A stretch of DNA of 64,000 nt from Candidatus Nomurabacteria bacterium (GCA_023898465.1 CP060223.1:608001-672000); one strand, 5' to 3'; positions 2,794-25,294 are shown, counted from the first letter of the stretch. The notes: generated by a model from the sequence alone, not told the origin. Program-made: numbers and translations.

Positions 2794-2805
2794 CTATTCA
2801 CCGAT

Positions 2806-3879
2806 ATGGCTATGACTAAACCGCAAACTGTTGGAGGGATGCGAACAATGTCGTGGCGAACTATGCTGAAAAGCATATTCATCGCTGCGTTCGTCTTAGT
2901 AAGTGCCAGCTGGACAAGCACCGTCCTGGCTGAAGAGGCAAATATTGACCTCGTAATCTCCCCTACTCAAGCAGGGATCACGGCGGGAGAAAGTATGCAA
3001 TTCAGCCTGCAGGCCACTAATCGCGATACTGGTGCAAGCTGGGATGCAACTAACTACGCGAGCTTTAGCACTACCGATCCAACCGGCACAATCACTGGGG
3101 GTCTTTATCAGGCTCGCAGTGCCGGGACCTGGACTATTAACGCTGACTACTCCGGCCGTACTATCAGCACGAAGGTAAATGTCACACCTGGCCCTGTTCA
3201 GCACATCGTAATTGATCCGAACTCTTATCCTGAGTATGTCACCGTGACGAAAGTGAAACAGTTCAGCGCTCGAGCCTATGACGCTTGGAATAACCAAATT
3301 TCAAATCCTGAGCTTCGTTGGTCATTAAGCGGAAATATCGGCACCCTCAGTACTGAGGGAGTCTTTACTGCTACGCAAGTTGGCGAAGGCACTATAACCG
3401 TAAGTTCTGAAACTGTCAGCGCCAAAGTAGACGTGGTTGGTCAAACCGCTCGAGTGGTAAATACAAATGTAAGCACTAGTAATGCCAACACATCAAATAG
3501 CAATGTGAGTGAAGAAAATGAGAGTACAAGCGGTGAAGTACTCGGTGAAAATGATGAAATGACTGGTGATGAAGAAATGATGACTGATGAGGAAGCGAAC
3601 GAAGCAAGTTGCTGGGATATCCACTGGTGGGGATGGCTACTCACTATGATCGTTTACTTCGTTCTCCTCTACGGATTCTACTACATGGTTCGAGGCACTG
3701 ATGACAGCTGGATCTGGATTGGACCCGTAGTTCTTACTGCCGCGGCTCTGGCAATCTTCTTTGCCTTCCGCTGCGACGGCACTGCAGCCTGGTTCCCCTG
3801 GCTAAGTATCATCGGCGGACTCTTGATCACGCTTTTCCGCCCATTAAAGTTCGTACCAAAAAACGGCGACTCTCTCTAA
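2806..3879 (+). CDS. Membrane-anchored surface protein (signal peptide, Ig-like/beta-rich ectodomain, acidic linker, C-terminal TM helices)
   Basis: It has a signal peptide. It carries an EVLGEN...MTG segment that resembles the QVLGAE...TG segment of the two upstream proteins. It has several C-terminal hydrophobic helices instead of an LPXTG motif. Confidence 0.5.
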   Translation: MAMTKPQTVGGMRTMSWRTMLKSIFIAAFVLVSASWTSTVLAEEANIDLVISPTQAGITAGESMQFSLQATNRDTGASWDATNYASFSTTDPTGTITGGLYQARSAGTWTINADYSGRTISTKVNVTPGPVQHIVIDPNSYPEYVTVTKVKQFSARAYDAWNNQISNPELRWSLSGNIGTLSTEGVFTATQVGEGTITVSSETVSAKVDVVGQTARVVNTNVSTSNANTSNSNVSEENESTSGEVLGENDEMTGDEEMMTDEEANEASCWDIHWWGWLLTMIVYFVLLYGFYYMVRGTDDSWIWIGPVVLTAAALAIFFAFRCDGTAAWFPWLSIIGGLLITLFRPLKFVPKNGDSL

Positions 3880-3896
3880 TTCGTCGCTACAAAAAA

Positions 3897-3921
3897 CCCT
3901 GGCAGAGCGTCAGGGTTTTTT
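3897..3921. terminator. Bidirectional rho-independent terminator between convergent genes
   Basis: The sequence is aaaaaa-CCCTG-gcagagcgt-CAGGG-tttttt, a GC stem flanked by an A-run and a T-run. Confidence 0.7.
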
Positions 3922-3933
3922 GTTTGTCGCTTT

Positions 3934-4749
3934 TTAAAGCCAGAATATGATAAGCAAGATGCCGAGTGCGATACGATACCAGGCAAATCCTCGTAAGGTG
4001 TGTGACTGAAAAAAACGAAGTAGGAAACGAATAGCAATAAGACCGGTAATGAAGGAGCTGGCAAAACCTAAAAGCATAGTAAATATCTCTTGACTGTCTA
4101 CGCCCTGGGATGCAAGCTCAGCTAAAACCTTCACTGCAGCCGCAAAGACAATCGGGACAGATAGCAAAAAGGAAAAGCGAGCTGCATCATAGTGACGTAA
4201 TCCAAGGAAGCGTCCTGCCACAATAGTGCTACCTGAACGGGAAATACCAGGCACCAGGGCTAAAGCTTGTGCTAAGCCAATCCAAATAACATCTTTAAAG
4301 GCAATGCTCTCCCCTGTGCGATTAGCCTCCTGACGATCTGCCCAGAAGAAAAAGAGACCGCCGATGAATAAAGTTACCCCAACGGAAACAGCGCTCCGGA
4401 ATGTATCAGCTAAGAAGGATTCAAAAAATAATCCAACGAGAGCGGCCGGAATACTGCCTACCACGAGATACCAAAACATACGACGTTCACGTGAATCTGA
4501 TTGATCAGGCCTCCGTGTTATTGATCGAATTCCTGCTAAGAAAATACGCCAAAGGTCGCGACGGAAAAAAACCAACAAGGCACATAAGGTACCCACGTGA
4601 AGAGCAACATCAAAAGCTAAAGCATCAGCAGCTGAAAAATCAGGCCAAATAGCATGGAGTACGACAAGATGACCAGAGCTCGATATTGGAAAGAATTCAG
4701 TAACCCCCTGCACTAGACCAAAGAGAATCGACAAGAGCGCATCAAACAT
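3934..4749 (-). CDS. uppP: Undecaprenyl-diphosphatase (BacA/UppP)
   Basis: The N-terminus (MFDALLSILFGLVQGVTEFFPISSSGHLVV) and the GISRSGSTI motif are characteristic of the UppP family. It is a multi-TM protein. Confidence 0.9.
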   Translation of the reverse strand: MFDALLSILFGLVQGVTEFFPISSSGHLVVLHAIWPDFSAADALAFDVALHVGTLCALLVFFRRDLWRIFLAGIRSITRRPDQSDSRERRMFWYLVVGSIPAALVGLFFESFLADTFRSAVSVGVTLFIGGLFFFWADRQEANRTGESIAFKDVIWIGLAQALALVPGISRSGSTIVAGRFLGLRHYDAARFSFLLSVPIVFAAAVKVLAELASQGVDSQEIFTMLLGFASSFITGLIAIRFLLRFFQSHTLRGFAWYRIALGILLIIFWL

Positions 4750-4761
4750 AGAAAAGTAAAC

Positions 4762-5631
4762 TTAATGAAGTACCTGACATTTGGGGCAATAGTGGGCTGA
4801 GCGTCCACCTATTTTTTCCCGCTTCAATATGGTACCACATTGGTGACAGTTTTGCCCGTCTCTACCATAGGCATGTAGATATTTTTGCATGCTTCCTCCC
4901 ATACCTTTCCCTTTACCAAAGTGGTGAAAGGTCGTCCCCTTTTTAGTCACGGCTAACTTTATTATTCTGAGTATTGCCCGATACAAGGCTAATAATTCTT
5001 GATTATTTAGACTGACCACTCGACGTCGTGGATGAACCCTAGCCGCGTAATTTACTTCATCGGCATATATATTACCCAGACCAGCCAAAACTCTCTGGTC
5101 CAATAGCGCATCTTTAATTCTCGCTTTAGGATGTCGATGTAGTCGTTCCAAAAAAGTCTGGAAGCGAAGCTGTTGATTAGGTTCAGGACCTAAGCCTAAA
5201 GATTGAAACCACGTAGCTAATTGACCAGTCTTACGACAATGCAGGTAGGCAAAGCGACGCTGATCATTAAAAAATAGTTGCGTGTTGTCGGAAAGCAAAA
5301 ACACAGCCCCAGTGAAGGTATTTGGCAAATTTTGCAAACCATTGTGAATTGGATGTCCCCCAACCCTTATTACACCTTCCGCGTTGCGATGAATAAGCTG
5401 GCCAGTCATTTTTAAATGCACACAAAGGGTGTAGCCATTATCAAGCTCTAGTAAAAATATTTTTGCTCGTCTTTTTACTGCGGTGATTTTTGCATGTACG
5501 GCGCGCTTAACTGAATATGGAGATTCTTTCACTAACTTCGGATGAAATATTTGGATAGATAAAATCTCCCGGTTTTTTAATACGGGCTGTAAAACTCGTC
5601 GGAGTGTCTCGACTTCCGGTAACTCAGGCAT
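4762..5631 (-). CDS. mutM: Formamidopyrimidine-DNA glycosylase
   Basis: The N-terminus MPELPEVETLRR carries the catalytic Pro2/Glu3. The C-terminus has a zinc finger (CxxCG...YCPKCQ). Confidence 0.85.
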   Translation of the reverse strand: MPELPEVETLRRVLQPVLKNREILSIQIFHPKLVKESPYSVKRAVHAKITAVKRRAKIFLLELDNGYTLCVHLKMTGQLIHRNAEGVIRVGGHPIHNGLQNLPNTFTGAVFLLSDNTQLFFNDQRRFAYLHCRKTGQLATWFQSLGLGPEPNQQLRFQTFLERLHRHPKARIKDALLDQRVLAGLGNIYADEVNYAARVHPRRRVVSLNNQELLALYRAILRIIKLAVTKKGTTFHHFGKGKGMGGSMQKYLHAYGRDGQNCHQCGTILKREKIGGRSAHYCPKCQVLH

Positions 5632-5637
5632 CCAAGA

Positions 5638-5973
5638 CTACTCGCTACTCAATCCTAAATCGCTCAACTGCAACTCGACCCACTCTCCACTTTCTGGGTC
5701 CTGGCGAAAGAGTTGCAAGAAATCAACTGTCTCGGTGTCGCTATACTCTTTTTCAATCTGCACATCTCCACCAATGCGCTTTGATACAATCGCCTTCTCT
5801 CCCACAAATCGTCCGCGTACGCTACGACTTAATTTCATGTTTCCTTGGGGGCCACGAAAAATAAGTGTCTCGGTAGCACCGTGTCCATCCTCGTCTGGCT
5901 CAGTCGACCTCGACTGTAAATCCAGCTTCTCCTCTATCATCTCACAAATTTCTTCCCATTTTTCATCAAGCAT
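5638..5973 (-). CDS. Hypothetical acidic protein
   Basis: The ORF overlaps the upstream receiver gene by 8 nt and is co-oriented with it. I recognised no family. Confidence 0.35.
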   Translation of the reverse strand: MLDEKWEEICEMIEEKLDLQSRSTEPDEDGHGATETLIFRGPQGNMKLSRSVRGRFVGEKAIVSKRIGGDVQIEKEYSDTETVDFLQLFRQDPESGEWVELQLSDLGLSSE

Positions 5974-6448
5974 ATTGTTTTTCTTCTGGACTCAATTTGT
6001 TATGCTCCTGATTTGCCCGCTCCTCTGCTTCTAAAAATCCAGCTATTTTTGGATCAACTTCCAATTTCGGAATCTTGCCTGCCAGGAAATCACGCACTCG
6101 ACTCACTAAAGCATGAGGGTCGAAATTTGACTTCACAATAAAATCATTACCACCTAGGTATGCCACACGCTGCTGACTTACCATATCCCCTAAGTTTGAA
6201 ATTACCATAATAGGCAATTTCTTTGTCTCAGGATCTGCACGCAAAATTCTAATTACCTCATAGCCGTCAATTTTAGGCATGAGTAAATCAGCTAAAACTA
6301 AATCTGGCTTAAACTCCTTTACCTCCGCTAATACTCGAGAAGCATCAGCTAAGGCTAGTACGGTAAAACCTGACTTCTCGAAAAGTACCCGGTAGAGTCG
6401 TCGGATCGTTTCAGTGTCTTCGAGAATAAGAATTCGTGTTGTAGCCAT
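5966..6448 (-). CDS. Stand-alone response-regulator receiver (REC) protein with short C-terminal tail
   Basis: It has the acidic pair (ILEDTE), the phospho-acceptor Asp in LVLADLLMPKIDG, Ser/Thr in VISNL and Lys in DFIVK. There is no output domain. Confidence 0.8.
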   Translation of the reverse strand: MATTRILILEDTETIRRLYRVLFEKSGFTVLALADASRVLAEVKEFKPDLVLADLLMPKIDGYEVIRILRADPETKKLPIMVISNLGDMVSQQRVAYLGGNDFIVKSNFDPHALVSRVRDFLAGKIPKLEVDPKIAGFLEAEERANQEHNKLSPEEKQYA

Positions 6449-6498
6449 ATATTTTCCTCCTGGAATTAGGATATCAAATGAATGCGTTCATGACCAGC

Positions 6499-7284
6499 TT
6501 ACTTGTCTTCGGGCAGCTCATTTTTCTCGATTTTTTGGAGAATTTTTGCCCAGGGTAATTTTACCAAGGCATAAATCAAAAAAACGAAAAGAAGAAATAA
6601 AAATGCATTCATTATTACGCTGCCAAGGGAAATTTCTGTGCTAAATACCACATCATGAGCAAAAAGACCCAGAATCGCAATGCCTAGTCCTGCAAGAATC
6701 TTGCCAAAAAGCATGGCGGGTATCAGGTGCCAGAGTGGATAACGTATCATACCCAAGGGTAAAGTGAGCATATCATCGGGTAGAGGTAAACTAGCAAAAG
6801 CAACAATCAAGACTTGAGTTACTACAGGGCGACGATGCACAAAGGCTCTAATAGCCTGATAAGAAGCTGGTCTTTTCCTTTTAAATAGACTTGAGCCAGA
6901 CCACCCCACACCATAACTCACTAATTCGCCCAGGGTTGCCCCCAGGCCGGTCAAAATACCTAGCCAAAGTGGATGGAGACCAAAAGCGGCCAGGAAAAAA
7001 ACGACCGCCGCATACGGTAAAGGACTAAAAACAGTAATATTGCCAATTATGGAAACAATGAAGGTGCCGAGATATCCATACCGAATAGCAGCATCTTGCC
7101 AAGCCTCTGACCACTCAGCCACGCTTCTCTGTGTAGCTGGGTGGGTAAGGAAGAAAACGCTCGCCCCAACAATACAAAGAAAGGAAATTAGTAAAAACCA
7201 CTCTTCCGCGCCCCAGTGTTTTTCAAACACGCCGAAGATATAGCGCTGTTGCTTCTCAGGATTTTCCCTTTTTTCCTCGTCCAC
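6499..7284 (-). CDS. DedA/VTT-family membrane protein
   Basis: It is multi-TM. It carries G-rich DedA-like motifs (GNITVFSPLPY...GATLGELVSYGVG, LGMIRYP...FGKILAG). Confidence 0.55.
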   Translation of the reverse strand: MDEEKRENPEKQQRYIFGVFEKHWGAEEWFLLISFLCIVGASVFFLTHPATQRSVAEWSEAWQDAAIRYGYLGTFIVSIIGNITVFSPLPYAAVVFFLAAFGLHPLWLGILTGLGATLGELVSYGVGWSGSSLFKRKRPASYQAIRAFVHRRPVVTQVLIVAFASLPLPDDMLTLPLGMIRYPLWHLIPAMLFGKILAGLGIAILGLFAHDVVFSTEISLGSVIMNAFLFLLFVFLIYALVKLPWAKILQKIEKNELPEDK

Positions 7285-13990: not shown

Positions 13991-14599
13991 ATGCACCACA
14001 ATACTATTGCCCTCGATATCGTACTTTTTCCACCGGAGGAAATCGCCAAAGAGGCAAAGTCTTACAATGAGGAATTGTTGCAGCAAAATCCAGCGGGTTT
14101 ATGTTTAGACGCCACACACCTTCCTCATATGACGCTTATGCAGCTCTATGCAAACTCTGAGAAGCTGCCCGACATAGTAGACAGTATTAGGACCATCAGT
14201 CATCAATTCCAAGCACTGCCTTTACGAATAAATGGCATCAAGGGAATAGCGTTAGAAAATGAACGTGCTTTTTTCCTTACATTGGACCCACAGCCAGAGC
14301 TCTTCCGACTCCACCGTGATCTCATGAATAAACTTCAAACGTATGAAGTAGCGACTGATGCAAAGGCATTTCTACTTGATGCGGATGAGGAAGCTCGACC
14401 GAGCACTCTAGCCTATACCAAAAACTTCCGTGAGCAGGTAAGTTTTGATCACTTTGATCCTCATATAACCATTGGAACTGGTGAACAAATAGACTTTCGC
14501 AACCCAATGGAATTCCTAGCTAGTCAACTAGCAATCTGTCATCTAGGAAATTTCAATACCTGCCGAAAAATACTTTGGGAAACCCAATTAGGTAGATAG
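13991..14599 (+). CDS. 2H phosphoesterase superfamily protein (LigT/2'-5' RNA ligase-like)
   Basis: It has two H-x-T-x motifs (LPHMTLMQ and DPHITIGT) at the characteristic spacing. Confidence 0.6.
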   Translation: MHHNTIALDIVLFPPEEIAKEAKSYNEELLQQNPAGLCLDATHLPHMTLMQLYANSEKLPDIVDSIRTISHQFQALPLRINGIKGIALENERAFFLTLDPQPELFRLHRDLMNKLQTYEVATDAKAFLLDADEEARPSTLAYTKNFREQVSFDHFDPHITIGTGEQIDFRNPMEFLASQLAICHLGNFNTCRKILWETQLGR

Positions 14600-14632: not shown

Positions 14633-15871
14633 TTAGCGCTTTCTTTGATGAAGAAGGAGTTTCCAGGATAGCTTCTCGGTATACTCCATTGAGCCAATGC
14701 GAAACATCGCAAAAGCAAGATACAGACCAATCACAATGTAGAGGAACACTGCAGCAACGCCTAGGAGTAATTCCCCTATTCCTATTGCATCCACTGATGA
14801 ACGGAATAAGAGAACGAGCGGTGCGGTGAATGGAAAAAAGCTAAAGAAGCGAGCAATAGATCCACCAGGATCAGTCGCTAAAATACTCGCGAGATAAATC
14901 GGCAGAATTGAAAGCATAATAAAGATCGAGGAAAACTGTTGCGCATCTCGATAGTTTGGCATTGCCGCACCCACGCCAACCATAATACTCGCAATGAAGA
15001 AGAAGCCGGAAAAAACAAAGTACAGAGCAATAAGTATTTGTCCAAAGGAAATGTGAACCATTGACCAATTAATGTCGATCAGGGTTGCACTAGACACCAT
15101 GCCAATAGCGAGAATAATAGCGCTCAGAGTGAGGAGTTGTGTAAGCGCCACTGCGGTGAGTCCAAGCAACTTCCCCCATAACAATGTCCGCATTGGCACG
15201 ATTGAGCGAACAATCTCAATCATGCGATTTTCCTTTTCCTCAGAAATACTCATCAACATATAACTTGAGGACATCATCACGAGCAGGAAGTATATTACGA
15301 CAGCCACGATCGGCAGAACCAAGCTCTCAATTCCTCCTTGCACAACATCGCCGTCTTTGTAGAGTGTATGCGTTACCGCTATATCACTGTTAAATAACTC
15401 TATTTCCTGGTTATCACCTACTTTAGAAAGTATGCTTTGCTTTAATAAGTTTTTTGCTAAGTCATCAAAACGCCCGCGAGTTGCAAAGCTGGTATCCTCA
15501 ACCACCAACTCAACTTGTTTCGTCTCAGTCACATTTGCAGGCACAATAATCGCTGCATCCGCCTGCTTGTCTTGAACTGCGCTCCGGGCAGCGCTTGCAT
15601 CCATCGTCGAAACAATGGCACCCTGATAGTACTCTGGAAGAATAATCCCTGACTCATCAACAACGAGTATCTCTTTAGCATTTTTTACTTGCTCTTGGAT
15701 TTTCTTTTCTGCTGAACTGGCCGAGAGAGTTGATACGAGTAAGAGCACTACATAGAGCGCCGGAATAAGGAATATGACTGCCCAAAAAGATTTTTTGCGA
15801 ACAATTTTCCACCACTCCCGAAACGCAATAATCCAAAGCTTAGATTGCATTGTCTTGTTGGATACGAACAA
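14633..15871 (-). CDS. ABC-2 type transporter permease (NatB-like, large extracytoplasmic loop)
   Basis: It has an N-terminal TM helix, a ~150 aa loop and five C-terminal TM helices. Its start overlaps the ATPase gene. Confidence 0.65.
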   Translation of the reverse strand: MFVSNKTMQSKLWIIAFREWWKIVRKKSFWAVIFLIPALYVVLLLVSTLSASSAEKKIQEQVKNAKEILVVDESGIILPEYYQGAIVSTMDASAARSAVQDKQADAAIIVPANVTETKQVELVVEDTSFATRGRFDDLAKNLLKQSILSKVGDNQEIELFNSDIAVTHTLYKDGDVVQGGIESLVLPIVAVVIYFLLVMMSSSYMLMSISEEKENRMIEIVRSIVPMRTLLWGKLLGLTAVALTQLLTLSAIILAIGMVSSATLIDINWSMVHISFGQILIALYFVFSGFFFIASIMVGVGAAMPNYRDAQQFSSIFIMLSILPIYLASILATDPGGSIARFFSFFPFTAPLVLLFRSSVDAIGIGELLLGVAAVFLYIVIGLYLAFAMFRIGSMEYTEKLSWKLLLHQRKR

Positions 15872-16781
15872 AAATTTCCTGCAATGAAGGTAGAGCTAAG
15901 GAAAAATGAGAAACTGCAACATTTTGCTCAATTAAATAGCGCAGCACACTCTCTGGATTTACTTCAGGGCGTAAGGTTAACCGCGCAGCATCATTACCAA
16001 GCTCCACTTCATACAATTCTGCATTCCTTGGAAAATCACCCTTATAGCGTACATCCACCATTCGCTCACCAAAGCTTTCCTTCACTTCTCGGACACCTCC
16101 GTAGAGGACGCGCTTGCCATTCTTTAACATAACTAATCGATCGGCAATCCGTTCTACCTCATCCATGAGGTGAGTAATGAAGACTATGGTACTCCCCTGC
16201 GCTTTTAATCCATCCAACAAATCCATAAGTAGTGATCGGTTCACAGGGTCTAAGCCGCGGGTCGGCTCATCAAGTATGAGCAACTTTGGCTGATTAAGTA
16301 TGGCAATGCCTAGCTGTACCTTTTGCTGCTGTCCAGAAGAGAGACGCTTAATGCGCTCGTTCTTCTTATCAATCAGACCCACACGCTCTAAATATTCTTC
16401 GCTCTGCTTCTTAGCTTCCATTGAGCTCATCCCTCGCAGCTCGCCAAAATACTTGAGCGTCTCATATACACTCGCATCTGAATACAACCCCCGCTCCTCT
16501 GGGAGATAACCAACTTTCGGTGCCAGGGCTGGACCATAGTCTTGGTCAAAAATCCTCATGACACCCTTACTCGGCGTAAGTAAACCTAAGAGGCAACGAA
16601 TAGTCGTTGTCTTACCTGATCCGTTTGCACCGAGAAAAGCAAAGGTCTCTCCTGCGCCAACCTCAAAAGAGAGGTCACGAACAACCTCTTTTGATCCAAA
16701 TGATTTTGCAAAACCTTCGATGCGAATAACTGAATCACTCATATGCTTCCACGCTTCACCGTAACAAGCATAGCCTAACAA
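15840..16781 (-). CDS. ABC transporter ATP-binding protein (NatA-like)
   Basis: It has Walker A (GANGSGKTT), the ABC signature (LSSGQQQKVQL) and Walker B (LLILDEP). Confidence 0.85.
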   Translation of the reverse strand: MLGYACYGEAWKHMSDSVIRIEGFAKSFGSKEVVRDLSFEVGAGETFAFLGANGSGKTTTIRCLLGLLTPSKGVMRIFDQDYGPALAPKVGYLPEERGLYSDASVYETLKYFGELRGMSSMEAKKQSEEYLERVGLIDKKNERIKRLSSGQQQKVQLGIAILNQPKLLILDEPTRGLDPVNRSLLMDLLDGLKAQGSTIVFITHLMDEVERIADRLVMLKNGKRVLYGGVREVKESFGERMVDVRYKGDFPRNAELYEVELGNDAARLTLRPEVNPESVLRYLIEQNVAVSHFSLALPSLQEIFVRIQQDNAI

Positions 16782-16803
16782 AACAGACCGAAAGATTCAA
16801 GTA

Positions 16804-17178
16804 CTAGACGCCGAGTTTCGTTTTCACTTTTTCAACTAAATCTTCTAGCTTCCAGTCTGCCTTTACGAGAAAATCAAAAACCTTATTCTCAAGCGCTTTC
16901 TGCACTTTGTCAGCATCATTTAAGTTGGTCAACATCATAACCGGCACGTCGCTCCCCCACTCATCATCCCGTAATTGTGACAACATGGTAATCCCATCCA
17001 TCTTAGGCATGACAATATCGAGCAGAATGAGGTCAGGATGTTCCTGCATTGCTACTGATAGTCCCTGTATACCATCACTAGCTCGAAGCACTGTAAACTT
17101 TTCATGCTCTAACTTATCACCGAGTGCCCGAAGTAATGCTGAATCATCTTCAACAACGAGAATTTTTTTTACTGGCAT
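16804..17178 (-). CDS. Stand-alone REC-domain response regulator (paralog 1)
   Basis: It carries ILVVEDD, the phospho-acceptor Asp in LILLDIVMPKMDG, Thr/Ser in LTNL and Lys in DFLVK. It is 124 aa with no output domain. Confidence 0.85.
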   Translation of the reverse strand: MPVKKILVVEDDSALLRALGDKLEHEKFTVLRASDGIQGLSVAMQEHPDLILLDIVMPKMDGITMLSQLRDDEWGSDVPVMMLTNLNDADKVQKALENKVFDFLVKADWKLEDLVEKVKTKLGV

Positions 17179-17180
17179 AA

Positions 17181-17555
17181 TTATTTTAACCCTTCCTTAA
17201 TTTTTTTAATTATATCTTCTAAAGTCCATTCTGATTTCACTATAAACTGACTCACCCCGCCGGCGATTGCCTTATCTTTTTCCCCGGCATAATCTAAATT
17301 GGTCAATATCATGACTTTGACATTTTTACCCCAATCATCCTCACGGAGTTTTTCCAACATTGTCATCCCGTCCATCTTAGGCATGACAATATCGAGCAGG
17401 ATGAGATCGGGATGTTTACTAAAGGCAACATTTAAACCCGCCATACCATCAGGAGCCTCCAAGCAAGTGTACTTTTCTTTTGACAACTTTTGACAAAGCG
17501 CCTGACGAATTGACGGATCATCCTCGATAACCAGTATTGTTTTTGTACTCTGCAT
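17181..17555 (-). CDS. Stand-alone REC-domain response regulator (paralog 2)
   Basis: It is about 60% identical to paralog 1, with the same motifs (ILVIEDD, LILLDIVMPKMDG, LTNL and FIVK). Confidence 0.85.
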   Translation of the reverse strand: MQSTKTILVIEDDPSIRQALCQKLSKEKYTCLEAPDGMAGLNVAFSKHPDLILLDIVMPKMDGMTMLEKLREDDWGKNVKVMILTNLDYAGEKDKAIAGGVSQFIVKSEWTLEDIIKKIKEGLK

Positions 17556-17557
17556 AG

Positions 17558-17956
17558 TTACTCCTTAAGGTCTAACGAGCGCTCGATTGCATCGACAATT
17601 GCATCGAGTCGATGGTCGGTTTTAGTGAAATAATTTTGAATACCAAGTTGAAGATAGGCTTTTTGCGCATCAGCACTTGCAGTATTTGAAACGACAAAAA
17701 CTGGGATATTTTTCCAGCGGGAATCTTCAGCCTTTATCTTTGCCAGGAAATGAAGGCCATTATCACTTCCTAATAAATAATGATCTAGCCAAATCACATC
17801 AATACGATCAATCTCTTCAATGTAATGCAAGGCCTGTTCAGATGTTCGGGCGCATACTACAGAAAAATCTCGACTTTCAAGTTTTTTTTGGATTGCGCTG
17901 GCGAGAGGGCGCTCATCCTCAACTACAAGTATAACCTTATCAATTTTTTGTACCAT
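17558..17956 (-). CDS. Stand-alone REC-domain response regulator (divergent paralog 3)
   Basis: It carries ILVVEDE, an Asp in VIWLDHYL, Ser/Thr in VVSNT and Lys in YFTKT. It is 132 aa. Confidence 0.75.
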   Translation of the reverse strand: MVQKIDKVILVVEDERPLASAIQKKLESRDFSVVCARTSEQALHYIEEIDRIDVIWLDHYLLGSDNGLHFLAKIKAEDSRWKNIPVFVVSNTASADAQKAYLQLGIQNYFTKTDHRLDAIVDAIERSLDLKE

Positions 17957-17965
17957 AGCGTAATA

Positions 17966-20389
17966 TTATGAACTTATTAAACCCTTATTTCCCTGCTGTG
18001 CTCGCATACCTTTAATAGGCAGACTTACTAAAAATGTCGTACCCTTTCCCTCTTCTGAAACAAAGCTGATTTTCCCTCCGGCCATTTCTACGACCGCTTT
18101 TGCAATATAGAGACCTAGACCAGTACCGTCTGTCTCCCTTACTTTTACATTATCAGCTCGGAAAAGTTTTGTGAAGATCTTATCTTGCTGTTTCTGAGGT
18201 ATGCCATAACCGTTATCTTTAATTTCCACGATGGCATTTTTTTGTTCAAGATACATTTTAACCCAAATTTTACCTTTTTCGGGGGTATACTTTACTGCAT
18301 TGCTAAGGAGATTATCAAACACTATCTGAATCAATTTTGGATCAAGATGGATTAATGGGATCCCCTTTTTAGTTTGCATCACTAACTTAATTTCTTTTTC
18401 ATTGATCATTGGTTGAAGTAGCGACGCGCTCACTCGACACAGCTCGGTAATATCCGTTGGTTGAGGATCTACAGCTAAAGTTCCTAGCTCTATGCGAGAG
18501 ACATTTAATAATGCATTTACCAAATCCACCATGCGTTGATTACCGTGGTATATTTCCTTCACATATTCAAGCTGATTTTTTTTCAGCTTACCCACGTCAC
18601 CATCTAGCAGCATTTCAGCATACCAATTAATCGCTGAAATAGGCGTACGTAATTGATGAGAAGCTAGAGAAACAAACTCAGTTTTTGCTCGATCGATTTC
18701 TTTTTCCTTTGTAATATCTCTTTCAATACCTACAAAGAATAACACATTGTTATCGTCATCTAATACCGGACTAACTGTCACCGATGCTTCATATATCTCA
18801 CCGTTCTTGCGCTTATTTTTTACCTCACCTTTAAAAGTAAGCTTCTTTTGAAAAATTGTAGTCCAAAACTTGCTATAAAATGCTTTTGGCATGAGGCCGC
18901 CCCAAAGCTCTCGCCCACCCGCCTTCTTACCTATTATCTCATTGGCTGAAAAACCAGTTATTTTTGTTGTTGCGTCATTAGCATATACAATAATCCCATC
19001 CGGATTTGTAATTACTATTTGATCGGAAGCCTGATCTACCGCTAAGCCAAATTTCTTTAAGTCCTGAGCTAAGAGTAAGGATCGATCTTTTTCTTGCTTC
19101 ACATCCTTCAGAGACTGGGTTAGTTTAGCTTTTGATTCAGCTAAACCTTTTTTTTGACGCTCTACAAGGGTGAGATTTCGACTAAGTTCAGCGGTACGAT
19201 CTGCTACTCTTTTTTCTAAAGTACTGCGATTCTTTTCTACTACGCCACGCATTTTCTCAAACGATTTTGCTAAGAGAGAAATCTCGTTGCTTGCACTAAA
19301 ACGATTAAGCGGTAGAGGTTTTGAAAAATTATTTTGCGCTATGGCATTAGATGCCTCAGTGAGGGTGCGCAACGGTGAGGTGATAAGGCTCGCGAGCAGA
19401 AAAGTGATCGCGGTAATGGCAATAAGACTTAACACACCAATCCGAATCGCCTCATTACTAAGCACGGTGACTGGTGCGAACAAACTACTCTCCGTGTACA
19501 CAGAGATGAGCGCCCAATAACGTTCAGGATGAGCTGGGTCATAAAAAACCTTCTTCCAAGTACGGAACTCTTGATCATCGCTATCTCGCTCAATCGCCTC
19601 ATCAAACGCGGCTACACGATCCTTCATTTCTGGATGAAGTACAAAATAATTTGCTCGGTTAGGCAGGACAAAGCCGTAAAGCAAATAAGAATCCGGATGT
19701 ATAAGTATATTTCCCTCACTATCAATGAGGACCTCGTACTGAGTTTCGGTGCTTACACTTCGGAGACCTTCCTGAATAACATCATTTGCATGCAAGTTGA
19801 GCACAACATAGCCCTCAATGACTTTAGTCTCGTCGTTTCGAACCTTGGCTACAACTCTCAGCACTGGCACATAGGGCTCTTGTATTTTTCCATACGCGAT
19901 ATTTAAATCATATGGGGAAATGAAAACATCAGTATTAGAACTTTGCGCTTCCTGAAAGTACTCCCACGCTGATTCATCCTCAAGTTGAGATCCTTCTACT
20001 ATTTGAACAACCCCGTTATCTCCGTCTACACGCACCATCTCTTTGCCATCCAGATCGAGATACTTTATACGAAAAATTCTTGGGTCGGCCTTTAGAAAAG
20101 ATTGAAATATTTGTTGAGTCTCGGTAATCGCCTGAGTACGAGCCTCGTTTTCACTGCCTGGTAATTTTGTGAGGCTTGGATAATCACGCAAAGAAAGCAC
20201 AAGGCGGTAATACGTTTCTAGTTCATCTTCCACATGTACAGCCTCTGACTCCACTACCCCTTTTTCTTGTTCTAAGATTCTGGCTTCTAAATTTGTCCTA
20301 GCCTGAAAAAATACTAAAAACCCCAGCACAAGCATAGGAATAGCAGCGAGTACTAGAAATATGAGCGCAAGTCGTATTCGTATACCCAT
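17966..20389 (-). CDS. Sensor histidine kinase with a large extracytoplasmic sensor domain, HAMP, coiled coil, PAS, HisKA and HATPase_c
   Basis: It has TM1 at residues ~7-28, a ~280 aa periplasmic domain, TM2 and a HAMP-like linker. The PAS-like segment is NPDGIIVYANDAT...GFSANEIIG. The H-box is ASHQLRTPISAI and N/G-box motifs are present (DNGYGIP, GTGLGL). It has no receiver domain. Confidence 0.85.
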   Translation of the reverse strand: MGIRIRLALIFLVLAAIPMLVLGFLVFFQARTNLEARILEQEKGVVESEAVHVEDELETYYRLVLSLRDYPSLTKLPGSENEARTQAITETQQIFQSFLKADPRIFRIKYLDLDGKEMVRVDGDNGVVQIVEGSQLEDESAWEYFQEAQSSNTDVFISPYDLNIAYGKIQEPYVPVLRVVAKVRNDETKVIEGYVVLNLHANDVIQEGLRSVSTETQYEVLIDSEGNILIHPDSYLLYGFVLPNRANYFVLHPEMKDRVAAFDEAIERDSDDQEFRTWKKVFYDPAHPERYWALISVYTESSLFAPVTVLSNEAIRIGVLSLIAITAITFLLASLITSPLRTLTEASNAIAQNNFSKPLPLNRFSASNEISLLAKSFEKMRGVVEKNRSTLEKRVADRTAELSRNLTLVERQKKGLAESKAKLTQSLKDVKQEKDRSLLLAQDLKKFGLAVDQASDQIVITNPDGIIVYANDATTKITGFSANEIIGKKAGGRELWGGLMPKAFYSKFWTTIFQKKLTFKGEVKNKRKNGEIYEASVTVSPVLDDDNNVLFFVGIERDITKEKEIDRAKTEFVSLASHQLRTPISAINWYAEMLLDGDVGKLKKNQLEYVKEIYHGNQRMVDLVNALLNVSRIELGTLAVDPQPTDITELCRVSASLLQPMINEKEIKLVMQTKKGIPLIHLDPKLIQIVFDNLLSNAVKYTPEKGKIWVKMYLEQKNAIVEIKDNGYGIPQKQQDKIFTKLFRADNVKVRETDGTGLGLYIAKAVVEMAGGKISFVSEEGKGTTFLVSLPIKGMRAQQGNKGLISS

Positions 20390-20410
20390 AAAACCCCTCT
20401 TATGAGCTAA

Positions 20411-21094
20411 TTATCGCTCCTTTTTACGGAAATCGTAACGCAAGCAGCCCTCGCAGCTGCAATTAAGAAAATTTGTCATACTGGCTAAACGTCGACCAAG
20501 GAGCCGGGCTACCTTCTTATCGCCCTGACTCAACTTCTTCTCTCCTCGATGCCCACTTACAAAAATACCCCCATATGGACTGCCGGCATCAAAATCAACA
20601 CCCTCCCCTTGTACTGGATAAGGGATACCTACTGGAATCATGCCTAGATTTAATAAAGGAATAATCAATGAAAGTAATGTTGCTTCTTCACCAGAGTGAA
20701 TACTACCACCTGAACAGAATACTGCAGCTGGCTTATTCACCAACTTCCCCTCTAACCATATAGGTGATAAACCATCAAGGAATTGCTTCAACTGAGAAGC
20801 AAAAGAACCAAAATGCACCGGGGTTCCCAGCGCGACTCCATCAGCGTTAATAAAATCGTCTAAACTTGCTTCAGGGAACTCTTTAGTCAAGCTATTATGC
20901 ACTTTTTTTAACTTTGGGTTTTTTCGAAAAAAAGAAGCGGGCAAAAGCTCGGGAACTCTCATTACCTTCACTTCAACATCACCTATCTCTCGTGCTCCCT
21001 GCGCAATAATTTTAGCCAACTCTGCTGTCTTACCGGTAAAACTATAAAAAAGCACGAGCACTGAAAGCTTTTTTGTATGAATTTTTGTTTGCAT
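20411..21094 (-). CDS. Flavodoxin-like fold protein (WrbA/NAD(P)H-flavin oxidoreductase-like) with C-terminal Cys cluster
   Basis: It has the flavodoxin-type phosphate-binding motif (YSFTGKTAELAK) and a C-terminal NCSCEGC motif. It is first in the co-oriented run of kinase, receivers and ABC genes. Confidence 0.45.
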   Translation of the reverse strand: MQTKIHTKKLSVLVLFYSFTGKTAELAKIIAQGAREIGDVEVKVMRVPELLPASFFRKNPKLKKVHNSLTKEFPEASLDDFINADGVALGTPVHFGSFASQLKQFLDGLSPIWLEGKLVNKPAAVFCSGGSIHSGEEATLLSLIIPLLNLGMIPVGIPYPVQGEGVDFDAGSPYGGIFVSGHRGEKKLSQGDKKVARLLGRRLASMTNFLNCSCEGCLRYDFRKKER

Positions 21095-21196
21095 AGATGA
21101 ATTGTAGCTTTTGCTAATAAAAAAAGCAAAATTGACTTTTTCATAAGGATAACATAAGCTCCTAATGACTTACATTTCCTACATGTATGACATAAT
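21095..21196. promoter_or_regulatory. Divergent promoter region with a 7-bp inverted repeat
   Basis: The plus-strand promoter is TTGACT (21132-21137), a 17 nt spacer and TAAGCT. The minus-strand promoter is TTGCTT, a 17 nt spacer and TACAAT. Its -10 ends only 6 nt before the ATG of the flavodoxin-like gene, so that transcript may be leaderless. An inverted repeat TTTTGCT-N9-AGCAAAA (21109-21131) lies between and over the two promoters. Confidence 0.45.
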
Positions 21197-21448
21197 ATGA
21201 AGACCATGAAAAATACACATCATGATGCTCACCACTTCTTTGGAACGACCACGCTAGGTGAAAAAGGTCAGGTGGTAATACCGGCCGAGACGAGAAAGGC
21301 GCTGAATTTAAAGCCAGGCGACAAACTGCTAGTCTTTGGCATGGGTAAAAATATGATCACGCTGACAAAGTTTGAACAGCTCGAGAAATTTACCAATATT
21401 ATGAGCAAGCGACTCGACGGCCTGCGTAAAATCCTCCGAGACGCTTAA
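21197..21448 (+). CDS. AbrB/MazE/SpoVT-family DNA-binding protein
   Basis: It has a swapped-hairpin AbrB-type motif (GEKGQVVIPAETRKALNLKPGDKLLVFGMG). It lies directly upstream of two ABC exporter genes. Confidence 0.6.
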   Translation: MKTMKNTHHDAHHFFGTTTLGEKGQVVIPAETRKALNLKPGDKLLVFGMGKNMITLTKFEQLEKFTNIMSKRLDGLRKILRDA

Positions 21449-21449
21449 T

Positions 21450-23216
21450 ATGCGCACACTCCTCCGCTTCGTCCGTCCTTATACATGGACCATAGTTTTA
21501 TTGGTTGGCTTTGTGTATGCCAGCGTGGCTGCCAACCTGGCTTTGCCCGATTATATGGCCAATATTATTAATAATGGCATTGTGGGTAAGGATATTGGCC
21601 TGGTCTGGCGAACAGGGTTGGAGATGCTCGCAATATCACTTGGTGGAGCAGCGGCCAGCTTCTTTGTTACCCTACTCGCCTCTCGTATTGCCAGTGGGTT
21701 TTCCCGTGACGTGCGAGAAGCGCTTTTTAGTAAGATCGAAAGCTTTTCTTTAAGCGAATTTAATACCTTCTCAACCGCTTCACTCATTACCCGCTCAACA
21801 AACGATGTCCAACAGTTGCAAACGGTGCTAGTCATCCTCCTACGTATGGCCCTAATGGCGCCAATTATGGGTATCTGGGCGATTATTAAAGCCTACACAA
21901 ACGCTCCGTCAATGACCTGGCTCATGGGTCTAGCAGTCGGTGTATTATTAGTGATTATTTCAGTTATTCTGGCTATTGCGATTCCGAAGTTTACTGCCCT
22001 GCAAAAGTTAGTTGATAAGTTAAACCTTGTTACTCGCGAGTTACTCACTGGACTTCGGGTTATCCGGGCCTTTCACCGCGAAGAAGCTGAGGAAACAAAA
22101 TTTGATAAAGCGAATGTTGAGCTTACGCAGCTTAACCTCTTTGTGAATCGACTCATGATCCTCCTGCAGCCAATTATGATATTCATCATGAATGTTACTA
22201 CATTGGCAATTGTTTGGTATGGCGCAAAGTTAGTTGATGCAGGAGACCTCCAAATCGGTCAAATGATTGCCTTTATGCAGTATGCCATGCAGGCCGTCTT
22301 TGCTTTCCTGTTGATCACTATGGTCTTTATTATGGTCCCTCGGGCTTCTGTCTCGGCTAAGCGCATTGGCGAAGTATTACGAACCAAGGCCACTATTCTT
22401 GACCCGGAAAAACCTGAGCAAGTTGAAAAACTGCAAAACGGAAAAGTGGAATTTGACCACGTTACCTTTTCCTACGGCCAAGCTGACACTCCTGTGCTGC
22501 ACGATATTTCCTTCACCGCTGAATCAAATCAAACCACGGCCTTTATCGGAAGTACTGGGAGCGGCAAGTCTACTTTGATCAACCTTATCCCCCGCTTTTA
22601 TGATGTGAGCTCCGGGGCTATTCGTATCGATGGTCTAGATATTCGACAACTACGCCAAGAGGATCTCTACAGTCGGATCGGTTTTGTTCCACAGAAGGGC
22701 GTCTTATTCTCCGGCACGGTGCGTAGTAATCTCACCTATGGGGCTCCAGATGCCAGTGAAGAGGAAATTCGCCGAGTTGCCCACATTGCCCAAGCTGATG
22801 AATTCATTGAGAAACTTGAAGGTGCTTATGGCGCGCCTATTTCTCAGGGCGGTACAAATGTTTCCGGTGGACAAAAACAACGCCTCTCCATCGCCCGAGC
22901 AATTCTGCATAAGCCACTCATCTATATCTTCGATGATAGTTTTTCAGCACTTGATTTCGCCACAGACGCAAAATTACGAAATGCGCTACGCAATGAGACA
23001 AGAAACAAAACGGTCTTGATTGTTGCCCAACGCATTAGCACTATTATGAATGCTGACAAGATTGTCGTGTTAAACGAAGGTCGGATTGTTGGACAAGGCA
23101 AGCACGCTGAGCTCATGGAAACTTGCCAAGTCTATCGTGAGATCGCACTATCTCAACTCTCAGAGGAAGAACTACAGGGCTCAGGAATAAAGACACTAAG
23201 TGCAGCAAACGCATGA
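21450..23216 (+). CDS. ABC exporter, fused permease/ATPase (heterodimer half 1)
   Basis: It has six N-terminal TM helices, Walker A (GSTGSGKST), the signature LSGGQKQRLSIAR and Walker B (IYIFDDSFSALD). Confidence 0.85.
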   Translation: MRTLLRFVRPYTWTIVLLVGFVYASVAANLALPDYMANIINNGIVGKDIGLVWRTGLEMLAISLGGAAASFFVTLLASRIASGFSRDVREALFSKIESFSLSEFNTFSTASLITRSTNDVQQLQTVLVILLRMALMAPIMGIWAIIKAYTNAPSMTWLMGLAVGVLLVIISVILAIAIPKFTALQKLVDKLNLVTRELLTGLRVIRAFHREEAEETKFDKANVELTQLNLFVNRLMILLQPIMIFIMNVTTLAIVWYGAKLVDAGDLQIGQMIAFMQYAMQAVFAFLLITMVFIMVPRASVSAKRIGEVLRTKATILDPEKPEQVEKLQNGKVEFDHVTFSYGQADTPVLHDISFTAESNQTTAFIGSTGSGKSTLINLIPRFYDVSSGAIRIDGLDIRQLRQEDLYSRIGFVPQKGVLFSGTVRSNLTYGAPDASEEEIRRVAHIAQADEFIEKLEGAYGAPISQGGTNVSGGQKQRLSIARAILHKPLIYIFDDSFSALDFATDAKLRNALRNETRNKTVLIVAQRISTIMNADKIVVLNEGRIVGQGKHAELMETCQVYREIALSQLSEEELQGSGIKTLSAANA

Positions 23217-25294
23217 GCGACCAAGAACGTAAAACCCAAAACAGCGGAGCTAGCACCCAATCTGGTCGTCCTATGATGCGACCAATGGGTGGTGGCAACC
23301 CTATGGCAATGATGCAGGCCGCAGCGAAGCCAAAAAACTTCAAGCGGACTATGCGTCAACTCGCCACCTATCTTAAGCCGTATTGGAAAAAGATTATTCT
23401 GGTACTAGTCTTGGCCATGGCGAGCACGGTTTTCTTAATCGCTAGCCCAAAAATACTCGGGCGTATGACCAATCAAGTAGTGGATGATTTTGTAGATGTC
23501 ACTGTATATAAGCAGCTGGTGGCAAAACTCCCGGCCGGTACTACTTTCCCAGAAGGTACTACCGGGGCTGATGTGCTCGCCCAACTCCCTCCCGAAACTA
23601 TTGAAAGCATGCCTGATTTTGCGAAAAGCGCATTAGAAAAACTGGACTTATCACAGGCCCCAAGTTTTCACTATGACATACTGCGCAACATTGCGCTTGA
23701 ACTCATGATCCTCTACCTCTTAAGCGCGCTTTTTAGCTACATACAAGGATGGATTATTACCGACGTATCGCAGAAAGTTACTTATCAGTTTCGTCGCGAT
23801 ATTTCCACAAAGATTGGCCGGATGCCTTTACGCTATTTTGATAAAACAACTCATGGTGAAGTACTTAGTCGAGTAACGAATGATGTCGATACCGTGAGTC
23901 AAACTCTCAATCAATCATTAGCGCAAATTATTACCGCCGTCACAGCGCTGATTGGCATACTTATCATGATGTTCTCGATCAGTTGGGAAATGACTCTCGT
24001 GTCTTTAGTCACCCTGCCAATGAGTTTTGGATTGCTTCGCGTCATTGTTGTGCGCTCGCAGCGTTTCTTTAAGCAGCAGCAAGATACGCTTGGACATTTG
24101 AATGGACATATCGAGGAAATGTTTAGCGGCCACACCGTTATGAAAGTGTTTAATGGTCAGAAGCGTTCGGTGGCCAAATTCACTAAAAATAATGACGAGC
24201 TCTATGGGAGTGCCTGGAAGTCGCAATTCCTTTCTGGGCTCCTCTTCCCGCTTACCAACTTTGTCGGCAACTTGGGCTATGTTGGCGTGACCGTCGTTGG
24301 CGGCTATTTAGCTCTGCATGGTCGGGTGAACATTGGCGATATCCAGGCCTTTATCCAATACGTCAACCAATTCAATCAACCAATTATCCAAACCGCAAAT
24401 GCGGCAAATGTGCTGCAGTCCACAGCTGCTTCAGCTGAGCGGGTATTTGAATTCCTGGCTGAAGAAGAGCAGAGCCCTGAAGCTCATCTGGAGAAAAAAG
24501 TATCGCAGGTCACCGGATCGGTCGAGTTTGAAGATGTAGTTTTTGGCTACACTCCAGGGCAAACGATTATTAAGAATTTCACTGCGCATATCAAAGCTGG
24601 TCAACGGGTAGCCATCGTAGGTCCGACCGGTGCAGGTAAAACCACCATCGTGAACTTGCTTATGCGCTTCTATAATGTAGACAGTGGGACTATTAAAATT
24701 GATGGAATCGACACACGCACAATGTCGCGCGCTGAAGTCCGAGAGCTCTTTGGTATGGTATTACAAGACACTTGGCTCTTCCATGGCACGATTAGAGAAA
24801 ACCTCCTCTACGGCAAGCCACAGGCAAGTGAAGAAGAGCTCATCGAAGCTGCGAAGGCCGCGCATGTTGATCACTTCATCCACTCACTCCCCCATGGCTA
24901 TGACATGGTACTTGATGAAGAGGCGAATAATATCTCGCAAGGTGAAAAACAATTACTCACCATTGCACGAGCAATGCTCATTAAATCACCAATGTTGATA
25001 TTAGATGAGGCGACCAGCTCGGTTGATACTCGCACCGAGATCCTTATTCAAAAGGCTATGGATCGACTGATGCATGCAAAGACAAGCTTCATTATCGCCC
25101 ATCGTCTGTCCACTATTAAGAATGCTGACCTCATCTTAGTCATGCGTGATGGTAATATTGTTGAGCAAGGCAAGCACGAGGAACTGCTCAAGCAGCAAGG
25201 CTTCTACGCCTCTCTCTACAACAGTCAGTTCGTGGCACCACTGATCGAAGAAGCAGAGCCCGTCACTCAAAAGCTGCATTCAGTCCCGGCCTAG
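23213..25294 (+). CDS. ABC exporter, fused permease/ATPase (heterodimer half 2) with Met/Pro/Gly-rich N-terminal extension
   Basis: It overlaps half 1 by 4 nt (ATGA). It has Walker A (GPTGAGKTT), the signature ISQGEKQLLTIAR and Walker B (LILDEATSSVD). It has a ~45 aa low-complexity N-terminus (MMRPMGGGNPMAMMQAAAKPK). Confidence 0.85.
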   Translation: MSDQERKTQNSGASTQSGRPMMRPMGGGNPMAMMQAAAKPKNFKRTMRQLATYLKPYWKKIILVLVLAMASTVFLIASPKILGRMTNQVVDDFVDVTVYKQLVAKLPAGTTFPEGTTGADVLAQLPPETIESMPDFAKSALEKLDLSQAPSFHYDILRNIALELMILYLLSALFSYIQGWIITDVSQKVTYQFRRDISTKIGRMPLRYFDKTTHGEVLSRVTNDVDTVSQTLNQSLAQIITAVTALIGILIMMFSISWEMTLVSLVTLPMSFGLLRVIVVRSQRFFKQQQDTLGHLNGHIEEMFSGHTVMKVFNGQKRSVAKFTKNNDELYGSAWKSQFLSGLLFPLTNFVGNLGYVGVTVVGGYLALHGRVNIGDIQAFIQYVNQFNQPIIQTANAANVLQSTAASAERVFEFLAEEEQSPEAHLEKKVSQVTGSVEFEDVVFGYTPGQTIIKNFTAHIKAGQRVAIVGPTGAGKTTIVNLLMRFYNVDSGTIKIDGIDTRTMSRAEVRELFGMVLQDTWLFHGTIRENLLYGKPQASEEELIEAAKAAHVDHFIHSLPHGYDMVLDEEANNISQGEKQLLTIARAMLIKSPMLILDEATSSVDTRTEILIQKAMDRLMHAKTSFIIAHRLSTIKNADLILVMRDGNIVEQGKHEELLKQQGFYASLYNSQFVAPLIEEAEPVTQKLHSVPA

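Follow-up and report, generated by a model that had tools for sequence, protein, structure and literature searches.

In Bacillus subtilis, NatAB is an ATP-binding cassette (ABC) ATPase paired with an ABC-2-type permease that carries a large external loop, encoded near the NatK-NatR two-component system. Two-component genes also adjoin ABC transporter genes in the Bce-type peptide-resistance modules (Dintner et al. 2011, cited in PMC7567580), and one such module has been reported from a Saccharibacteria genome (PMC7567580). In Thermotoga maritima the gene of the HisKA/HATPase kinase HK853 adjoins that of RR468, a receiver of ~122 amino acids (aa) without an output domain (PDB 3dge). In archaeal systems stand-alone receiver (REC) proteins dominate, classical DNA-binding regulators are absent, and protein-protein signalling has been proposed (Galperin et al. 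2018, PMC5847659). The locus described here is a run of seven minus-strand open reading frames (ORFs) at 14633-21094 of a 64,000-nt stretch of a Candidatus Nomurabacteria genome (CP060223.1:608001-672000); the whole stretch is called the window. It encodes a flavoprotein, a sensor kinase, three receivers and an ABC-2 pump, which the initial annotation read as one operon and one novel system.

Comparison with related loci leads to a different reading. The seven genes are probably three unrelated units, i.e., a WrbA-type oxidoreductase, a kinase with its receivers, and a pump, that share one directon of a very compact genome. By gene order and sequence relatedness, the kinase and receivers are a signalling cassette found throughout Patescibacteria (the candidate phyla radiation, CPR), and the trio in the window, termed REC1 to REC3, makes it an ordinary, slightly expanded instance. 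The cassette is apparently a conserved, undescribed variant of the known stand-alone-receiver kind of two-component system.

A kinase-receiver cassette of Patescibacteria

The genes of the cassette in the window, and the domains of its kinase, are listed first.

17966..20389, minus strand: membrane sensor histidine kinase, 807 aa, with a first transmembrane segment (TM1), a dCache-type sensor, TM2, HAMP, coiled coil, PAS, HisKA and HATPase_c
19640..20290, minus strand: periplasmic sensor of the kinase, aa 34-250 (dCache_1 PF02743, 58.6 bits; HK_sensor_dom_bact PF21623, 64.9 bits)
18485..18688, minus strand: HisKA (DHp) domain of the kinase (PF00512, 58.2 bits), with the His578 codon at 18656-18658 in S-H-Q-L-R-T-P
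18014..18343, minus strand: HATPase_c domain of the kinase (PF02518, 97.5 bits), with intact N, G1, F and G2 boxes
17558..17956, minus strand: REC1, R1-type stand-alone receiver, 132 aa (Response_reg), with the Asp58 codon at 17783-17785 in W-L-D-H-Y-L
17181..17555, minus strand: REC2, core R3-type stand-alone receiver, 124 aa (Response_reg), with the codon of the acceptor Asp55 at 17391-17393
16804..17178, minus strand: REC3, core R3-type stand-alone receiver, 124 aa (Response_reg), with the codon of the acceptor Asp54 at 17017-17019

The seven ORFs were re-read at their coordinates, and identical genes are predicted, in a separate gene call, on an independent metagenome contig from the source organism; the seven co-oriented genes initially annotated are therefore borne out. 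Domains were assigned by Pfam and NCBIfam scans of the cluster proteins with curated cutoffs, and membrane segments by hydropathy. These confirm the kinase as annotated, with a periplasmic sensor between two hydrophobic segments, HAMP, PAS, HisKA and HATPase domains, and no REC domain; the ribosome-binding site AGAGGGG precedes its ATG. The three receivers are likewise stand-alone proteins with Response_reg as their only Pfam domain, apart from weaker matches of REC1 within the REC clan. All three retain the acidic pocket, acceptor Asp, Thr/Ser and Lys of a receiver site (E10, D11, D54, T84 and K106 in REC3, the equivalents in REC2, and E13, D14, D58, S90 and K112 in REC1), which supports the earlier presumption that the signal passes to REC-only proteins.

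A pattern scan of species-representative genomes gave >580 confirmed matches to R3, the family of REC2 and REC3, and the 80 best of these loci, which span 1.06 Mb, were analysed with ORF-based gene calls. In 57 of the 80, a kinase gene lies directly upstream of the R3 anchor on the same strand. The anchor is arranged as kinase-R3 in 33 loci and as kinase-R3-R3 in three, and it stands alone in 19, several of them at contig ends. Wherever R1, the family of REC1, is present, its gene directly follows that of the kinase: the order kinase-R1-R3 is found in six loci, in two more that have two kinases and in two that are cut at contig edges, and kinase-R1-R3-R3 is found in the window and in L046. Some genomes carry several kinase-R3 cassettes (L014, L067, L030, L074). 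Locus L053, whose kinase has the same domain architecture as the window kinase, sensor type included, has only kinase-R3, situated between a CHASE-PAS protein and a glyoxalase. If the cassette is defined as a kinase with H-Q in its H-box, an optional R1 with W-L-D-H-Y-L and S-N, and at least one R3 with W74-G75, N85 and K106-x-D/E-W, every one of these features is found in the window. Thus the REC genes of relatives sit right after kinase genes; the scattered REC genes that, according to the initial annotation, would speak against it are not observed. The seven-gene order is nevertheless not conserved in the 80 related loci, and only its kinase-receiver part recurs.

In the 57 kinase-R3 pairs, mean mutual information between DHp and receiver exceeds that of shuffled pairings (z = 5.9), but shared phylogeny confounds this value, common ancestry would suffice to produce it, and the pairs are too few to define contacts. 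Many species-representative metagenome-assembled genomes with typical cassettes (L011, L013, L018, L019, L024, L032, L033 and others) bear the title 'uncultured Gammaproteobacteria' or 'Bdellovibrionales', and one protein is titled 'Helarchaeota'. These genomes are probably mislabelled or mis-binned, and therefore source names are unfit to define the taxonomic range of the family. No description of CPR kinase and receiver-only systems was found in the searchable literature, where work on CPR sensing counts kinases and leaves regulator outputs undescribed.

The R3 proteins are receiver-only, ~125 aa in length, and give 862 matches at E<=1e-10 with REC3 as the query. REC3 is 55-63% identical to R3 proteins of Falkowbacteria, Magasanikbacteria, Daviesbacteria, Sungbacteria, Paceibacterota and other Patescibacteria, and it displays the additional invariant or near-invariant residues of the family, W74-G75, N85 and D108-W109; its Lys is not followed by Pro. 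REC2 is the more diverged copy, with 53-54% identity to the R3 proteins of other genomes and about as much to REC3. The two had been annotated as tandem duplicates of about 60% identity; their measured identity is lower, 54-55%. When 135 receiver-only ORFs were clustered, REC2 and REC3 fell into the core R3 group and REC1 into a separate R1 cluster of 15 members, in whose alignment E-D-E, W-L-D-H-Y-L, S-N and K are invariant. REC1 had been taken for a merely divergent third copy, a view that its membership in a distinct conserved family contradicts. On these alignments REC2 and REC3 are best described as two old copies of the core R3 type, and REC1 as a second conserved component instead of a decayed duplicate.

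The Pfam cutoff for cREC_REC ('cyclic-phosphate processing receiver') is passed by REC1 and in 13 of 14 R1-type proteins. A gene for a LigT-like 2H phosphoesterase lies at 13991-14599 on the plus strand, convergent to the pump genes. A functional tie between this gene and the cREC_REC match of REC1 was considered and rejected, with no 2H phosphoesterase at any other R1 locus; the match looks like general similarity within the receiver clan, and the proximity looks coincidental. The window also encodes an orphan fourth receiver (5966-6448, minus strand, 160 aa) that consists of Response_reg and a ~40-aa tail without a recognised domain. Its gene is surrounded by unrelated housekeeping genes, and at 40% identity the protein forms a singleton cluster, outside R1 and R3.

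None of the three receivers of the cluster, at 124-132 aa, has the Trans_reg_C winged helix of the OmpR/PhoB family, the label 'OmpR family' given by JGI to some R3 proteins notwithstanding. Because the gaps between the receiver genes are only 2-9 nt, no split DNA-binding domain can lie between them. Scores for named single-domain families are low as well, 60.3 against 160 for DivK-like NF045717 and 53.3 against 200 for the haloarchaeal CheY family NF041367 with REC3, and 47.7 against 180 for CpdR NF046022 with REC2. Among the 132 non-kinase receiver proteins of the 80 loci, 130 are receiver-only and two have extra sequence, and no DNA-binding Pfam domain was found in any of the 132. The absence of a DNA-binding response regulator from the cluster was thus annotated correctly and is general to the sampled loci.

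Receivers that keep full acceptor residues and lack an output domain could also belong to a Spo0F-like phosphorelay, in which an unlinked histidine phosphotransferase (Hpt) would pass the phosphoryl group to a terminal output-domain regulator encoded elsewhere. The R3 profile does match Spo0F at ~1e-20, among many other receivers, and the multiple kinase-R3 cassettes of one genome could converge on one terminal regulator. However, the 63 downstream and 61 upstream neighbours of the cassettes include no recurrent Hpt- or Spo0B-like family, the 1.06 Mb around them contains no DNA-binding receiver, and in the window, which represents 64 kb of the genome, the one further receiver is the orphan without a recognised output domain, so that a relay of this type appears improbable.

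The kinase of the window has the phospho-acceptor His578 and all four ATP-binding boxes of two-component HisKA/HATPase kinases, with Gln579 in the position of the acidic residue (Glu or Asp) that normally follows the phospho-His and that tested HisKA kinases need for autokinase activity (His578-Gln579, 18653-18658). This H-Q pair is characteristic of the group. It occurs in 19 of 19 CPR-like kinases of the homolog search, whereas 101 more distant kinases have H-E (79), H-D (6), H-Q (1), H-R (1) or give no match (14). In the cassette loci, HQLRTP is present in 64 of 66 recognisable H-boxes (including the kinases in L003 and L007-L086); the string was not encountered in the searchable literature. 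Thr occupies position H+4 in 67 of 67 H-Q kinases, 51 of which keep the N, G1, F and G2 boxes and 63 of which keep G1, F and G2. Detectable relatives of the sensor domain are very few; it is shared with the kinase of locus L003 (P0002), which is 43% identical to the window kinase over 97% of its length.

The substitution bears on catalysis. The mutants CrdS E372Q and NtrB E140Q are kinase-negative, CrdS E372 mutants retain full phosphatase activity, as does HK853 E261A, and phosphatase activity requires Thr or Asn at H+4 (PMC3510030). The acidic residue after the His is naturally absent in some kinase families (bioRxiv 10.64898/2026.02.27.708494). The H-Q clade may either autophosphorylate by a slightly different chemistry or be biased towards phosphatase action. 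In the stronger form of the second alternative, the protein would be a weak autokinase that acts mainly as a signal-controlled phosphatase of receivers charged by acetyl phosphate or by another kinase. The near-universal H-Q pair, the invariant Thr at H+4 and the behaviour of the Glu-to-Gln mutants are in its favour, but the retention of the ATP-binding boxes in most H-Q kinases is hard to explain without autophosphorylation, and the natural absence of the acidic residue from some families also counts against it. We regard this stronger form as unlikely.

In the mechanism proposed for the cassette, the kinase would sense an external ligand through its dCache-type domain, and the signal would be relayed, as the domain order suggests, via HAMP and PAS to the HisKA/HATPase core. 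The kinase would then set the phosphorylation state of Asp58 of REC1, Asp55 of REC2 and Asp54 of REC3; these conserved residues are present in the proteins, and the chemistry is assumed. The R3 types REC2 and REC3 would be the universal partners of this kinase clade. Because they have no output domain, they most likely act by target binding, in a phosphorylation-dependent manner and on a conserved target that is not linked to the cassette. For output of stand-alone receivers by way of protein-protein contacts, the archaeal systems provide a precedent (PMC5847659). R1, here REC1, is always encoded between the kinase and R3 and would be an optional accessory, most plausibly a competing phosphate acceptor or a modulator of the kinase.

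The flavoprotein and the pump

The remaining genes of the run are those at its two ends.

20411..21094, minus strand: WrbA-type NAD(P)H:quinone oxidoreductase, 227 aa, FMN_red/Flavodoxin fold; first gene of the directon
15840..16742, minus strand: ABC ATPase, 300 aa (ABC_tran and DrrA1-3_C); the ORF extends to a TTG at 16781
14633..15850, minus strand: ABC-2 permease, 405 aa, from the ATG at 15850 (ORF to 15871); ABC2_membrane_3 PF12698, 113 bits

The first gene had been annotated as a flavodoxin-like protein with a C-terminal Cys cluster, and both features are confirmed. The protein exceeds the curated equivalog cutoffs of the WrbA (type IV NAD(P)H:quinone oxidoreductase) models (NF002999, 161.8 bits with a cutoff of 141; TIGR01755, 139.9 with a cutoff of 132.5), and the C-terminal tail (20411-20476) has Cys212, Cys214 and Cys217 as C-x-C-x-x-C. 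Classical WrbA (~198 aa) is not known to have such a tail. Among 120 Patescibacterial WrbA homologs, C-x-C-x-x-C is present in 76 and a four-Cys form, C-x-C-x-x-C-x-x-C, in 58; the copy in the window has three Cys. The tail is thus typical of a widespread Patescibacterial WrbA family (~222 aa, 60-70% identical), and its conservation suggests a metal-binding or redox-active role. None of the 80 cassette loci has a WrbA homolog, and a redox input from WrbA to the PAS kinase was rejected for that reason.

At the other end, Pfam and hydropathy agree with the annotation of an ABC ATPase and an ABC-2 permease with a large external loop, which is ~120 aa long and lies between the first two hydrophobic segments. 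The ATPase scores 192.8 against drrA TIGR01188, with a cutoff of 312, and this match and that of the permease to ABC2_membrane_3 (113 bits) are at superfamily level only. No sequence relative of the permease was found in PDB.

Linkage between cassette and pump was assessed from both sides, with the 80 receiver-anchored genome loci and with 80 loci from a permease-anchored metagenome scan, 38 of which have pump orthologs at 31-51% identity. None of the 80 cassette loci has a homolog of the window permease. Among the 38 ortholog loci, the permease gene comes right after that of the ATPase wherever the upstream flank is present, none of the 38 has a receiver gene adjacent to the pump, and no regulator recurs beside the pump orthologs, whose neighbours are heterogeneous. 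Per 10 kb there are 0.07 ABC ATPase genes at distances of up to 3 kb from cassettes and 0.11 at greater distances. A conserved kinase-pump linkage was rejected on these counts. The ATPase and permease are likely an autonomous pair that is neither a conserved partner nor a target of the cassette, and the pump and the flavoprotein are most likely chance neighbours of the cassette in a tightly packed genome.

For an operon, the initial annotation cited the co-orientation and close spacing of the genes. The directon is bounded by strand switches at 14599/14633 and 21094/21197, and the coordinates agree with gaps of 22 nt or less, or overlaps, with one exception. The likely start of the ATPase is the ATG at 16742, which yields the 300 aa of the Logan gene call and makes the spacer after REC3 61 nt and not 22. 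The window as a whole is 92% coding, its same-strand gaps have a median of 9.5 nt and are <=25 nt in 34 of 46 cases, and a 12-gene run just upstream of the cluster has unrelated housekeeping genes mixed together. Short gaps are therefore the norm of this genome, and close spacing is no evidence for an operon. The adjacency of WrbA, cassette and pump is probably specific to the genome of the window; co-transcription of the units is possible and would not alone imply a common function.

A consensus scan of the cluster found no strong sigma-70-like sites, and promoter-like sites are rarer than in shuffled sequence. An Rfam scan of the window gave tRNAs only, with no riboswitch or leader in the cluster. 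The 102-nt divergent spacer upstream of the WrbA gene (21095-21196) contains TTGCTT-17 nt-TACAAT, a site that was missed by the consensus scan and that ends 7 nt before the ATG; no obvious ribosome-binding site is present in the spacer. The site is a candidate promoter, from which the directon would be transcribed without a leader.

The proposal that the receiver-only proteins regulate the adjacent pump directly or post-transcriptionally, e.g., by binding of phosphorylated REC to the ATPase, in a seven-gene operon of a new type, draws on the single directon with its short gaps, on the lack of a terminator-like hairpin before the pump and on a cluster without a DNA-binding regulator. Related kinases also lie within 2 kb of ABC-2-type pumps in two other loci, L003 and L122, discussed below. 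However neither this pump nor WrbA accompanies any of the 80 cassettes, no receiver gene adjoins any of the 38 pump orthologs, and ABC ATPase genes are not enriched near cassettes. Furthermore, R3 proteins remain 55-63% identical in genomes that have no such pump next to them, a conservation that points to a shared target elsewhere. One system of kinase, three receivers, ABC-2 pump and flavoprotein is not upheld, and direct action of the receivers on the transporter has little to commend it.

Several observations nevertheless weigh against the separation of the seven genes into three units, and against the role proposed for the cassette. Terminator-like matches in the cluster fall inside genes, and no terminator-like hairpin is found in its intergenic spacers; this includes the junction between REC3 and the pump, so co-expression across that junction is possible. 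Very divergent ABC-2 permeases may escape the phmmer threshold of the searches, as ABC ATPases would not. The comparison reaches distant relatives only, the best non-self kinase being 43% and the best permease 51% identical. L003, the only locus with a full-length ortholog of the kinase, has one R3 and then an ABC ATPase/ABC-2 pair ~1.4 kb downstream. In L122, 0.5 kb separates a kinase from a downstream pump, the permease of which has 34% identity to that of the window. A loose, lineage-specific association of kinase and pump in these two loci thus keeps some small likelihood. Lastly, what R3 binds and what R1 does are matters that we infer.

With regard to L003, Fur- and VIT1-like genes lie between the cassette and the ABC pair, and the pair is 31% (ATPase) and 21% (permease) identical to the window pump, well below true orthologs. 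On these identities L003 was rejected as an orthologous kinase-pump locus. In L122 only the HAMP-PAS-HisKA-HATPase core of the kinase is related to that of the window (47%), the sensor domain is unrelated, a receiver gene is lacking, kinase and pump are separated by a pilin-like gene, and the locus was found by pump anchoring. The core-only relation, the missing receiver and the pump-anchored discovery led to its rejection as a case of linkage. The L122 kinase is situated (1868-7039) amid genes for type IV pilin-like proteins with N-terminal methylation-type leader motifs, with no receiver nearby.

Neighbours of cassette and locus

The proteins encoded next to the cassettes, 63 downstream and 61 upstream, are heterogeneous, and a conserved adjacent gene as the output of the cassette was rejected for that reason. 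The sole recurrent neighbour is a PilB-type T2SSE ATPase with MshEN, found in 5 of the 63 downstream positions (L013, L017, L046, L082, L085). In these five loci the PilB gene is preceded by an extra receiver of a different subgroup, 31-41% identical to REC2 and REC3. The same REC-PilB pair in L006 (3080-5091) heads a pilus operon whose end adjoins a related kinase. From this arrangement, the type IV pili of Patescibacteria may be controlled by receiver-only proteins.

A wider generalization, that Patescibacterial signalling runs on a single undescribed cassette type of H-Q kinases with receiver-only R3 and optional R1 partners, appears rather unlikely. If it is true, H-Q sensors would use a non-canonical autophosphorylation or act mainly by regulated phosphatase action on receivers charged by another donor, and the output would be directed to a conserved cellular machine and not to DNA, PilB, the type IV pilus ATPase, being the one recurrent neighbour.

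On the other side of the divergent spacer, a plus-strand block (21197-25294) starts with a gene for an 83-aa AbrB/MazE-type (SpoVT-AbrB) protein, the only DNA-binding candidate near the cluster. Two genes for ABC exporter proteins follow (ABC_membrane and ABC_tran; 588 and 693 aa), the first of them directly at its stop codon, and the AbrB/MazE-type protein could be a small regulator or an antitoxin-like protein coupled to a heterodimeric exporter. Elsewhere in the window, a 393-aa ORF at 42787-43968 (plus strand), directly after the DNA polymerase III alpha gene, matches Baseplate_J at 21.2 bits with a cutoff of 21.1, which is probably noise.

Comparison with known systems

A large part of bacterial diversity belongs to the Patescibacteria, whose regulation is almost without experimental study. 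In the sampled loci, two-component signalling runs via receiver-only partners, with no DNA-binding regulators, and through one kinase clade with an atypical H-box. With the combination of kinase, three receivers and ABC-2 pump not upheld, a false lead is avoided, and the R3 family, at 55-63% identity across the group, provides a handle for experiments in the few cultivable and genetically tractable Saccharibacteria. The binding partner of R3 could reveal how reduced epibionts convert external signals to behaviour, and the autophosphorylation status of the H-Q kinases bears on the generality of the accepted HisKA mechanism.

In contrast to NatKR-NatAB, no LytTR-type regulator is encoded in the window, whose kinase belongs to the HisKA type, with dCache, HAMP and PAS domains, and is not LytS-like; no match to LytTR or His_kinase (PF06580) was found in the cluster or its flanks. 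The linkage of two-component genes and pump is not conserved here, and no curated model assigns the pump to NatAB. The Bce modules resemble the window in that two-component genes adjoin those of an ABC transporter with a large extracellular domain in its permease. The Bce modules consist of FtsX-type BceB permeases, sensor-less kinases and OmpR-type DNA-binding regulators that are co-evolving, conserved neighbours. The permease of the window is of the ABC-2 type, its kinase has a sensor of ~280 aa, and cassette and pump co-occur in none of the 80 cassette loci and none of the 38 pump loci.

Among two-component kinases, the PAS-HisKA-HATPase core of the window kinase scores best to WalK, PnpS and PhoR (NCBIfam), far below the cutoffs (235 against 725 for WalK, 191 against 334 for PhoR). 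The R3 profile likewise matches the receiver domains of PhoP, ArlR, RpaA, DrrD, YycF and MtrA. The OmpR-family pairs differ in that the window receivers lack the winged helix and the H-box has Gln in place of Glu.

HK853-RR468 resembles the cassette in its HisKA/HATPase kinase with a stand-alone receiver partner. Both the R3 (88 bits) and the R1 (61 bits) profile have RR468 among their best PDB sequence matches. HK853, however, has a canonical H-E H-box, in which E261A is kinase-dead (PMC3510030), in place of the H-Q of the Patescibacterial clade. The receivers of the window number three and belong to two families, and R3 adds the invariant W74-G75, N85 and D108-W109, while the Pro that usually follows the conserved Lys is missing from it.

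The archaeal REC-only systems are alike in combining kinases with receiver-only partners, as do the Patescibacterial loci with their 130 REC-only and 0 DNA-binding receivers. In contrast to the archaeal systems, the cassette belongs to a bacterial lineage, has mostly membrane sensors of one HisKA clade, and uses one highly conserved receiver family (55-63% identity) in place of many diverse ones. Most archaeal REC-only genes are without a conserved neighbourhood (PMC5847659), whereas the Patescibacterial genes consistently adjoin those of kinases.

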